Translations under genes and position numbers: made by a program
Assembly: GCA_018303655.1 (NCBI GenBank)
Contig: JAGVXT010000007.1
Location: 18,228 to 82,227, forward strand
Reading direction: 5' to 3'
Length of the DNA stretch: 64,000 bases
From: Candidatus Woesearchaeota archaeon
Lineage (GTDB): Archaea; Nanobdellota; Nanobdellia; Woesearchaeales; GW2011-AR4
Shown here: positions 9,194-10,681 of the stretch, piece by piece
Numbering within the stretch: the first letter of the stretch is position 1
How the letters are laid out: each line of letters opens with the position of its first letter
Notes under the pieces: model-generated
What the model was told of the DNA's origin: nothing
The model's database searches: none
What the model saw: the letters and a program-made list of their open reading frames with translations, nothing else

Positions 9194-10681
9194 TTATCCT
9201 TTTATATTTCCCACAGGCTTCAGCCCGACAACAGGCTTGCTTATCCCGGCTTGTGAAACAGCATCAATAACATCAGTTATATTTTTATATGCAAAACCGG
9301 CTTCTTCAGCCAATCCTGGCATTGAGGTTGCCTTCACATAAATTCCTCTTTTTTCCATGTCCTTTTGCAATTGCTCTCCCCTAACTTGCCTTTTTGCAGC
9401 AGCCCTTGACATTGTGCGTCCGCTTCCATGAGCAGTGCTTCCAAAAGTTTCGTCCATTGCTTTTTGAGTTCCAACAAGCAAAAATGAGCCTGTTTCCATT
9501 GAGCCTCCTATTATAACAGGCTGTCCTGTTTCCTTGAATATTTTTGCCAATTCAGGGTGATGGGGAGGAAACGCTCTTGTTGAGCCTTTTCTGTGAACAA
9601 CAAGCTTTTTCTTGTGCCCATCAATTGTATGCTCTTCGAGCTTTGCTATGTTGTGCGCAACATCATAGACCATGTGCATATCCAGTTTTTCAGCTTCTGT
9701 CTTGAAAACTTTTGAAAAGCCTTCCCTTATCCTGTGCAAAATAACCTGCCTGTTTGAAAATGCCATGTTGGCGGCGCATGCCATTGCCTTGTAATAATCC
9801 TGGCCTTCATTGCTCTGAAAAGGAGCGCAAGCTAATTCCCTGTCATAAACCTCAATATTATACTTTTTCATCATTCCTTCAAAAATTCTTAAGTAGTCAG
9901 TTCCAATCTGATGCCCAAATCCCCTTGAGCCACAGTGCACCATAACAACAACCTGTTCTGATGTGTGAATTCCAAATTTTTTTGCAAGCTCCTCATCAAA
10001 AATATTTTCAGCTTTCACAATTTGAATTTCCAAGTAATGGTTTCCAGAGCCTAAAGTTCCTAACTGTTTAATTCCCCTTTCAATTGCCTTTGAGCTTACT
10101 TTTTCAGGCTCTGCCCAGTCAATCCTGCCATGACCCTCTGTCCTTTCCAAATCCTCTTGCCACCCATAACCATTTTCAACGCACCATTTTGAGCCATCTG
10201 TCATTATCTCCTTGAATTGTGATTTGTTGGCATCAACAAAGCCTCTTGAGCCGACTCCTGAAGGAACTGTTTTGAACATTGTGTCAACAAGCTCTTTCAG
10301 TTTTGGCTGGACATCCTTGAATGTTAAATTAGTTGTAACTAATCTCATTCCGCAATTTATGTCGAAGCCGATTCCGCCTGGAGAGATTATTCCTGTTTCT
10401 GAATCAAATGCTGCAACTCCGCCAATGGGGAAACCGTCAAGGGCCGAATAAGAAGTTCTTACTCAGAATCCCCAGTGCCCATCTGGCATGCAGAAAGCAT
10501 ACTTTTGTATTCCAGGCAGGCATGCTACATTAGTTACCTGGTTGAATACACCTTCATCCATCTCTCTAAGAAGCTTTTCAGTGGCGTAAATTCTAGCTGG
10601 AACCAGCATTCCTTTCTTGTAGCTGGTTGGAATCTCCCACACATTTTTATCCACACGCTTCATAGGTGGTTGTTCTGCCAT
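9194..10681 (-). CDS. rtcB: RtcB RNA 3'-phosphate ligase, interrupted by a 30-nt BHB intron (exons 10468..10681 and 9194..10437; spliced product 485 aa)
   Basis: A single 496-codon frame with one in-frame TGA at 10463..10465. The flanks read MPDGHWG...[11 protein letters not shown]...[13 protein letters not shown], and the rest aligns end to end with my recollection of the archaeal RtcB sequence pattern. Confidence 0.85.
10438..10467 (-). other. Predicted bulge-helix-bulge intron in the rtcB mRNA
   Basis: Removal recreates GYGF. The central helix is GGGG/CCCU, the 3-nt bulges are AUU and UGA, and the inner hairpin is 9 bp with an AACUU loop. Confidence 0.7.

Follow-up and report, generated by a model that had tools for sequence, protein, structure and literature searches.

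The analysed stretch of DNA, hereafter the window, comprises 64,000 nucleotides (nt) of Candidatus Woesearchaeota archaeon (assembly GCA_018303655.1, contig JAGVXT010000007.1, positions 18,228 to 82,227 of the forward strand). The locus in question is the gene rtcB, which encodes the RNA-splicing ligase RtcB and is interrupted by a 30-nt insert with the features of an archaeal bulge-helix-bulge (BHB) intron. The minus-strand frame 9194..10681 is broken solely by a TGA at 10463..10465, as a preliminary description of this DNA had stated and as the open reading frames (ORFs) and the sequence bear out. Two ORFs result, one of 72 amino acids (aa; 10463..10681) and one of 384 aa (9194..10348, from Met 10348). 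Deletion of 10438..10467 fuses U and AC as a Tyr codon and gives a 485-aa product. The locus is composed of the following features.

10468..10681, minus strand: predicted rtcB exon 1, with the ATG at 10681..10679, 71 codons and the first base (U) of Tyr72.
10438..10467, minus strand: predicted 30-nt BHB mini-intron of the HBh' type, RNA (10467..10438) UCUGAGUAAGAACUUCUUAUUCGGCCCUUG, in phase 1 within the Tyr codon.
10463..10465, minus strand: in-frame UGA, located in the 5' arm of the inner helix; translation of unspliced mRNA ends here after 72 aa.
9194..10437, minus strand: predicted rtcB exon 2, with AC of Tyr72, then 413 codons and the TAA at 9194..9196.
8443..9192, minus strand: gene for a ZIP-family metal transporter, directly 3' of rtcB, in an order kept in relatives.
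7994..8473, minus strand: gene for archease, the RtcB activator, overlapping the end of the ZIP gene.

The genes for RtcB, the ZIP transporter and archease form one co-directional block. The best protein matches are named as Woesearchaeota and Nanoarchaeota metagenome-assembled genomes, and the G+C content is 38%. The 485-aa product, which had been proposed from the sequence beforehand, matches the Pfam family RtcB (PF01139) along its entire length (positions 1-426 of 426 in the profile; E 5e-174) and the solved structures PDB 1uc2/4dwq with an E of 4e-179. The unspliced translation aligns to P. horikoshii RtcB (1uc2) with one exact 10-residue gap, flanked by GHQGY and GFPIGG, and no boundaries except 10438..10467 restore xGY together with a full-length RtcB. 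At the predicted exon junction (10468/10437) the sequence reads ...CACUGGGGAU/ACGGUUUCC..., with the slash marking the junction. The interrupted codon, Tyr72 in the window protein, is Tyr70 in P. horikoshii-based numbering. The preliminary description had placed the break in a conserved metal-binding motif; the high conservation holds, whereas metal binding is less certain, the documented ligands of RtcB being Asp95, Cys98, His203, His234, and His329 (PMC10630183).

In archaeal pre-tRNAs with BHB introns, bases of the 5' exon pair with the 3' end of the intron in a helix of 4 base pairs (bp), cleavage follows the second base of each 3-nt bulge, and the central helix carries a stacked inner one. 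Marck and Grosjean (2003) are said to have distinguished canonical hBHBh' from relaxed HBh' motifs among the introns of archaeal tRNAs and rRNAs. The corresponding elements of the rtcB insert are listed below, with slashes marking predicted cuts.

10470..10473, minus strand: exon strand GGGG of the central 4-bp helix, in the codons UGG GGA.
10440..10443, minus strand: intron strand CCCU of the central 4-bp helix (G10470-C10443, G10471-C10442, G10472-C10441, G10473.U10440).
10467..10469, minus strand: 5' bulge AU/U, predicted cut 10468/10467.
10437..10439, minus strand: 3' bulge UG/A, predicted cut 10438/10437.
10444..10466, minus strand: inner helix h', with the 5' arm CUGAGUAAGA (10466..10457), the loop ACU (10456..10454) and the 3' arm UCUUAUUCGG (10453..10444).

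The inner helix consists of 10 bp, two G.U pairs among them. Folding of the site region, a check suggested in the preliminary description, gave a minimum free energy (MFE) structure with the 3-nt bulge AUU, the 10-bp inner helix with its ACU loop and the central pairing GGG/CCC (z = -2.65). The central helix GGGG/CCCU, both bulges and a weak outer helix, all put forward there, proved correct. Across both strands of the 64 kb, a scan of ~6 million position-by-length candidates gave three sites that combine 3-nt bulges, a central helix paired 4/4 and an unbroken run of at least 10 inner pairs, and one of these is exactly the boundary that restores the RtcB protein. The remaining two, 16228..16281 (plus strand), in the gap ahead of the gene 16285..18471, and 55598..55629 (minus strand), antisense to a transglutaminase-like gene, restore no ORF.

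The 30 nt are identical in 10 of 10 independent contigs that differ in sample and assembler (JGI, MEGAHIT, and other scaffolds), several of them named as groundwater metagenomes, with no mismatch across up to 400 nt around the insert. An assembly error, which the preliminary description had named as a possible undoing of its claim, is therefore not the source of the insert. In a public collection, the exact 72-aa fragment was found on 18 contigs and the exact 384-aa fragment on 10. At about position 1087 of the locus L130, which belongs to the same population, a GAA to TAA nonsense change occurs in rtcB exon 2 (IREGF becomes IR-stop-GF); it reflects an error in sequencing, or else the variant is defective.

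Among the 120 best homologs, about 110 carry the interrupted motif intact and uninterrupted, and in the closest intron-less homologs precisely the 30 nt are missing at the junction (TGG GGC TAY GG), the outcome of a comparison with close relatives that the preliminary description had proposed. The intron-less close relatives L118-L121 use GGC for the Gly before Tyr, and all genes with an insert of the window's type use GGA or GGU, so that the first base of the 5' bulge is A or U. This codon contrast suggests a constraint on the bulge bases. Inserts of 31 nt occur at the window's site in L001 to L008, where they shift the frame, while L009 and L010 carry inserts of 33 and 32 nt, respectively, located 7 nt farther 5', between the His and Trp codons. 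Protein P0073, which belongs with L001 to L008, shares 94% identity with the query along the C-terminal 79% that aligns.

A pattern scan with one genome per species (ATGCCNGAYGGNCAY-N(30-60)-GGNTTYCCNATHGGNGG) identified 107 species-level genomes with rtcB interrupted in the same His-x-Gly-Tyr codons, all with archaeal labels. These were Woesearchaeota (36), Aenigmatarchaeota (19), Micrarchaeota (13), Nanoarchaeota (12), unnamed archaeon (10), and "uncultured Methanosarcinales" (17), so named phyla of the DPANN superphylum account for 80 of the 107. The "Methanosarcinales" label looks like a placeholder; rtcB DNA at four of these loci (L012, L030, L062, and L104) is 77-81% identical to that of the window. 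The preliminary description dealt with a BHB intron in a single gene, and the intron in rtcB stands, while the phenomenon is far wider, with several sites and often two introns per gene.

The window and the loci together gave 116 genes, 111 of them unique and 94 with complete downstream sequence. Their inserts measure 21-51 nt, most often 32 nt (29 genes), 33 nt (28), 30 nt (22), and 31 nt (19). Exactly half of the inserts (58 of 116) are not multiples of 3, and the remaining 58 all contain an in-frame stop. Every insert is thus a frameshift or a stop, and therefore none can be read through; a homolog translating its insert without a stop, which had been named as evidence to the contrary, was not present among them. 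After similar inserts were collapsed, a stop was present in 36 of 36 compared with 21.7 expected. The first in-frame stop was TGA in 42, TAG in 36, and TAA in 34 cases. The protein-restoring boundary lies after CAY in 57 genes, after GGA-U (the window's site) in 48, after TG of the Trp codon in 10, and after GGN in one. Removal of the first insert lets 58 of the 94 genes read to their normal end, which lies 414-444 aa beyond MPDGH, or up to ~930 aa if an intein follows DINC.

The boundaries were also recovered blind to the protein. A BHB scan over 51 positions and 49 lengths (2499 candidates per gene) ranked the protein-restoring boundary first in 59 of the 111 unique genes, alone in 44 and tied in 15; one prespecified boundary would be expected to rank first by chance ~0.04 times in 111. 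Covariation was assessed in fixed-geometry columns, on 39 distinct genes that belong to the same site class as the window. The inner helix is paired in 92% of cells, with changes on both sides at 7 of 7 pairs, and the central helix in 90%. The covariation score was 0.547 compared with 0.185 for shuffles, of which 0 of 500 reach 0.547, and with at most 0.194 for slid-partner controls. In the central helix, a G-C pair becomes A-U (8 genes) or C-G (1 gene) as the exon codon goes from Trp to Glu or Ser, giving GGGG/CCCU with Trp, AAGG/CCUU with Glu, and GCGG/CCGC with Ser. In the class with the site between His and Trp, the third base of the Gly codon, a synonymous position, changes in concert with the intron base opposite it (Fisher p = 4.5e-6), the pairs being U-A 39, C-G 10, U.G 5, and C/A 2. 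Helices that covary among intron-bearing relatives had been part of the proposed comparison, and this pattern indicates that the insert structure is under selection.

In the other 36 of the 94 genes, removal of the first insert exposes a new stop 29-50 codons further on. A second insert of 11-36 nt was found in 35 of these 36, in the motif with the Mn2+ ligands Asp95 and Cys98 (PMC10630183), and in 34 of the 35 its motif-restoring boundary coincides with a 4/4 central helix. Its removal brings 32 more genes to full length. These BHB-shaped second inserts occupy at least three positions, ~87-103 nt after the ATG of MPDGH, and some measure merely 11-13 nt, as in CCCGGAGGAA/TTTAAACCTTAG/TCGGG. 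The window rtcB has one predicted intron and no insert in the Asp95/Cys98 motif. The loci with a putative second mini-intron are given in two lines.

Second mini-intron (i): L002-L008, L013, L015, L017, L018, L022, L023, L035, L038, L040, L042, L049, L056, L057, L061.
Second mini-intron (ii): L067, L072, L074, L077, L078, L081, L083, L084, L091, L092, L098, L105, L107, L108, L113, L117.

Five loci (L056, L074, L078, L081, and L084) carry an intein-like insertion after the catalytic Cys (DINC-LHPES...), with 867-934 aa beyond MPDGH. Mini-introns and an intein coexist in one rtcB gene at these loci.

Taken from sequence comparison, the 30 nt at 10438..10467 are very probably an archaeal BHB intron with a relaxed (HBh') motif, carried by the rtcB pre-mRNA of a Woesearchaeota-like member of the DPANN archaea. 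Several points weigh against this reading. The central helix relies on a terminal G.U pair, and the MFE fold favours 3 bp with a 4-nt bulge. Pairing in the outer exon-exon helix reaches 53% in the canonical register and 70% with a 4-nt 3' bulge, and this helix shows no covariation because both of its strands are constrained coding sequence; it is unsupported in either register, and the motif is therefore assigned to the relaxed HBh' form, a non-canonical substrate. The exact spliced 485-aa protein is absent from a collection of 15 billion proteins, and neither the 485-aa cluster-mate P0133 nor the Plass protein P0136 is a spliced copy, both being diverged relatives without the intron. No match to tRNA_int_endo, the domain of the splicing endonuclease EndA, was obtained among those ORFs of the 64-kb window that measure 150 aa or more; EndA is, to our knowledge, universal in archaea. 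A second intact rtcB or another ligase may also be encoded elsewhere in the genome.

Among the alternatives, decay into a pseudogene, or an artefact of sequencing or assembly, would agree with the NCBI annotation, which calls such genes "partial", and with the extra nonsense single-nucleotide change in the L130 assembly. Such an origin is very unlikely given the identical insert in all ten independent assemblies, the otherwise intact ORFs kept in 107 species, and a structure-preserving covariation that signifies selection on the insert itself. Decay is further opposed by the single copy of rtcB in the window, a gene required for tRNA splicing.

Just as improbable is a split gene, whose 72-aa and C-terminal polypeptides would be made separately and assemble as in Nanoarchaeum. 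The break falls in mid-codon, its position varies among close relatives, and no ATG, GTG or TTG occurs from the insert to Met 10348, so the C-terminal piece would lack 29 strictly conserved residues, Asp95 and Cys98 included. A Shine-Dalgarno sequence GGAGG is located at 10691..10695, 9 nt 5' of the ATG at 10681, and nothing comparable precedes Met 10348. What speaks for separate polypeptides is that gene callers report two ORFs and that DPANN genomes contain split genes (PMC3655853).

A ribosomal bypass of the T4 gene 60 type would take off at the UUC before the UGA and land on a downstream UUC, and the window does offer a UUC before the UGA, a hairpin after it and an in-frame UUC 36 nt downstream. 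The product would read GHWGF-PIGG, however, without the invariant Tyr-Gly; a matching in-frame landing codon exists in just 34 of the 111 genes, and GYGFPIGG is restored in none. Bypass predicts neither the covariation of exon codons with the 3' end of the insert nor the constant distance of 2 nt that separates each boundary from the 4-bp helix, and its probability is lower still.

Readthrough or recoding of the UGA, giving a 495-aa RtcB with a 10-residue insertion, would suit the window insert, a multiple of 3 with one UGA, but is hardly credible: TGA terminates 15 of the window's 49 long ORFs and is a real stop, as had been held before, TAA, TAG, and TGA each serve as first stop, the 31-nt inserts of the closest intron-bearing relatives shift the frame, as do half of all inserts, and the invariant Tyr would be replaced and a motif identical in ~110 of the 120 best homologs split.

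If the insert is a BHB intron, the exon GGGG of the transcript would pair with the 3'-terminal CCCU of the intron, and the resulting 4-bp central helix would set apart the two 3-nt bulges, with the 10-bp intron hairpin stacked on it. EndA would then cut at 10468/10467 and 10438/10437 and leave 2',3'-cyclic-phosphate and 5'-OH ends. In DPANN archaea, EndAs carry inserts that have been tied to broad substrate specificity (PMC5829648). An RNA ligase, presumably pre-existing RtcB with the archease of the same block, would seal the exons and remake the Tyr codon UAC, giving an mRNA for the active 485-aa RtcB, and the 30-nt intron would probably be circularised by RtcB. Ribosomes on unspliced mRNA would stop at 72 aa because of the in-frame UGA in the intron. 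Both the cleavage by EndA and the self-ligation by RtcB are inferred from the known pathway. Provided that these cells have no ligase other than RtcB for such ends, it would follow logically that new ligase is made solely where active ligase pre-exists.

The two rtcB motifs of highest conservation are hit repeatedly by predicted introns, at several positions. The closest syntenic relative of the window locus, L083, is 82% identical in DNA, yet has its introns at two other sites, and intron-bearing and intron-less proteins share one 90% cluster. Judged from these comparisons, the putative rtcB introns turn over rapidly. The choice of sites would most simply be explained as for inteins and homing introns, in that invariant sites of essential genes favour spread by recombination and that in invariant motifs precise loss alone would be tolerated. 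Rapid turnover together with clustering in invariant motifs that also host inteins suggests selfish spread with imprecise loss impossible, and a designed regulator appears less likely. More tentatively, the mini-introns could be a mobile BHB family homing to active-site codons of the ligase, with a self-referential circuit of RtcB, archease and EndA that tunes or locks ligase levels to splicing capacity in DPANN archaea; this wider proposal is possible but doubtful. At L043, a stray fragment (~1790..1889, plus strand; ...CLPGIQKYSFCMPDG) encodes an RtcB N-terminus that stops at the intron-prone motif. The fragment is located ~2.7 kb upstream of the full rtcB of that locus, and may be left over from recombination at this site.

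A strict scan for BHB sites combined with ORF fusion, covering the window and 840 kb of DPANN DNA, gave nothing convincing outside rtcB; the scan is insensitive, and specificity of mRNA introns for rtcB is not proven by it. Its 79 hits outside rtcB resemble gene junctions or wrong-frame noise in GC-rich contigs and were rejected. Rfam at the gathering threshold and ARAGORN returned no matches and no tRNA genes over the whole 64 kb, and the insert therefore has no tRNA or known-RNA context there.

Other genes in the window were noted separately. An ORF at 43298..43978 (plus strand) combines Sigma70 region 2 and region 4 domains, as in sigma factors of the extracytoplasmic function (ECF) type; it is unexpected in an archaeal contig and may be a bacterial gene transfer. 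A bacterial-type aspartyl-tRNA synthetase with a GAD domain and a fused C-terminal YbaK-like aminoacyl-tRNA editing domain is encoded at 25639..27876 (plus strand), and near it are a GatA-like amidase (34001..35437) and GatB (35781..37196). The ORF of a ribonucleotide reductase large subunit at 132..1775 (plus strand) begins inside the N-terminal all-alpha domain (profile 30-76 at residues 1-51), so the gene may start ahead of its first ATG, or an interruption may lie upstream, close to the edge of the window.

If spliced as predicted, rtcB would be a second mRNA host gene of the archaeal tRNA-splicing machinery, more than 20 years after cbf5 and in more than 100 species. Expression of the splicing ligase would need the splicing ligase, which gives a testable positive feedback or "addiction" logic in a minimal-genome organism. 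The genes would also provide a natural system for how BHB introns spread and why catalytic codons host them, as with inteins. Should the mobile-family proposal be true, rtcB, with up to two or more introns in one gene and a rapid turnover of sites, would be the most intron-dense archaeal protein-coding gene known. Annotation pipelines call the interrupted rtcB "partial" or two ORFs; RtcB is therefore under-called in DPANN genomes, and other genes may be similarly affected.

Among known systems, the closest is the cbf5 pre-mRNA intron of Crenarchaeota, reportedly described by Watanabe (2002) and Yoshinari (2006). In the searchable literature, cbf5 of Crenarchaeota is the only archaeal mRNA intron host (PMC2738675), which agrees with the preliminary claim that BHB introns in archaeal protein genes are essentially confined to cbf5; a 2025 paper still cites it as the sole mRNA case, and no report of an rtcB intron was found in that literature. 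The two share a short BHB-type intron in an archaeal protein-coding gene, often with a relaxed cleavage motif (Yokobori 2009, PMC2738675), patchy gain and loss, a host gene acting in RNA processing, and a link to broad-specificity splicing endonucleases. The rtcB insert falls outside the cbf5 intron lineage, with rtcB of the DPANN superphylum as host instead of cbf5 of Desulfurococcales and Sulfolobales. Unlike cbf5, rtcB is entered at four or more points of one motif and at three or more of a second, a single gene holds up to two introns, and rtcB encodes the very ligase needed for sealing. Splicing has been experimentally demonstrated for cbf5, whereas the rtcB intron is known here from sequence.

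Archaeal tRNA and rRNA BHB introns (PMC4090602, PMC5829648) have the same 4-bp central helix between two 3-nt bulges, the same cut after the second bulge base and the same pairing of the 5' exon with the 3' end of the intron, and the rtcB intron is within the tRNA-intron size range of 11-175 nt. In contrast to these, it is located in the coding region of an mRNA, without a tRNA body aiding recognition and with an unsupported outer helix. HAC1/XBP1 splicing (IRE1; Trl1 or RtcB) likewise removes a small intron from a coding region without a spliceosome, by an endonuclease and a tRNA ligase (RtcB in metazoa), and the protein made changes with splicing. There, however, IRE1 acts on twin stem-loops under regulation by endoplasmic reticulum stress and the target is a transcription factor, whereas in rtcB EndA would act on a BHB and the target is the ligase. 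RtcB inteins (e.g., P. horikoshii PH1602) and homing introns resemble the mini-introns in that all look like parasites lodged where the active site is most conserved. Inteins carry catalytic residues of their own and are excised from the protein, while the mini-introns encode nothing and would depend wholly on host enzymes. What appears to be new here is the host gene, the superphylum, the multiple sites and copies per gene and the self-referential host, with machinery that would be the same as that of archaeal BHB introns.

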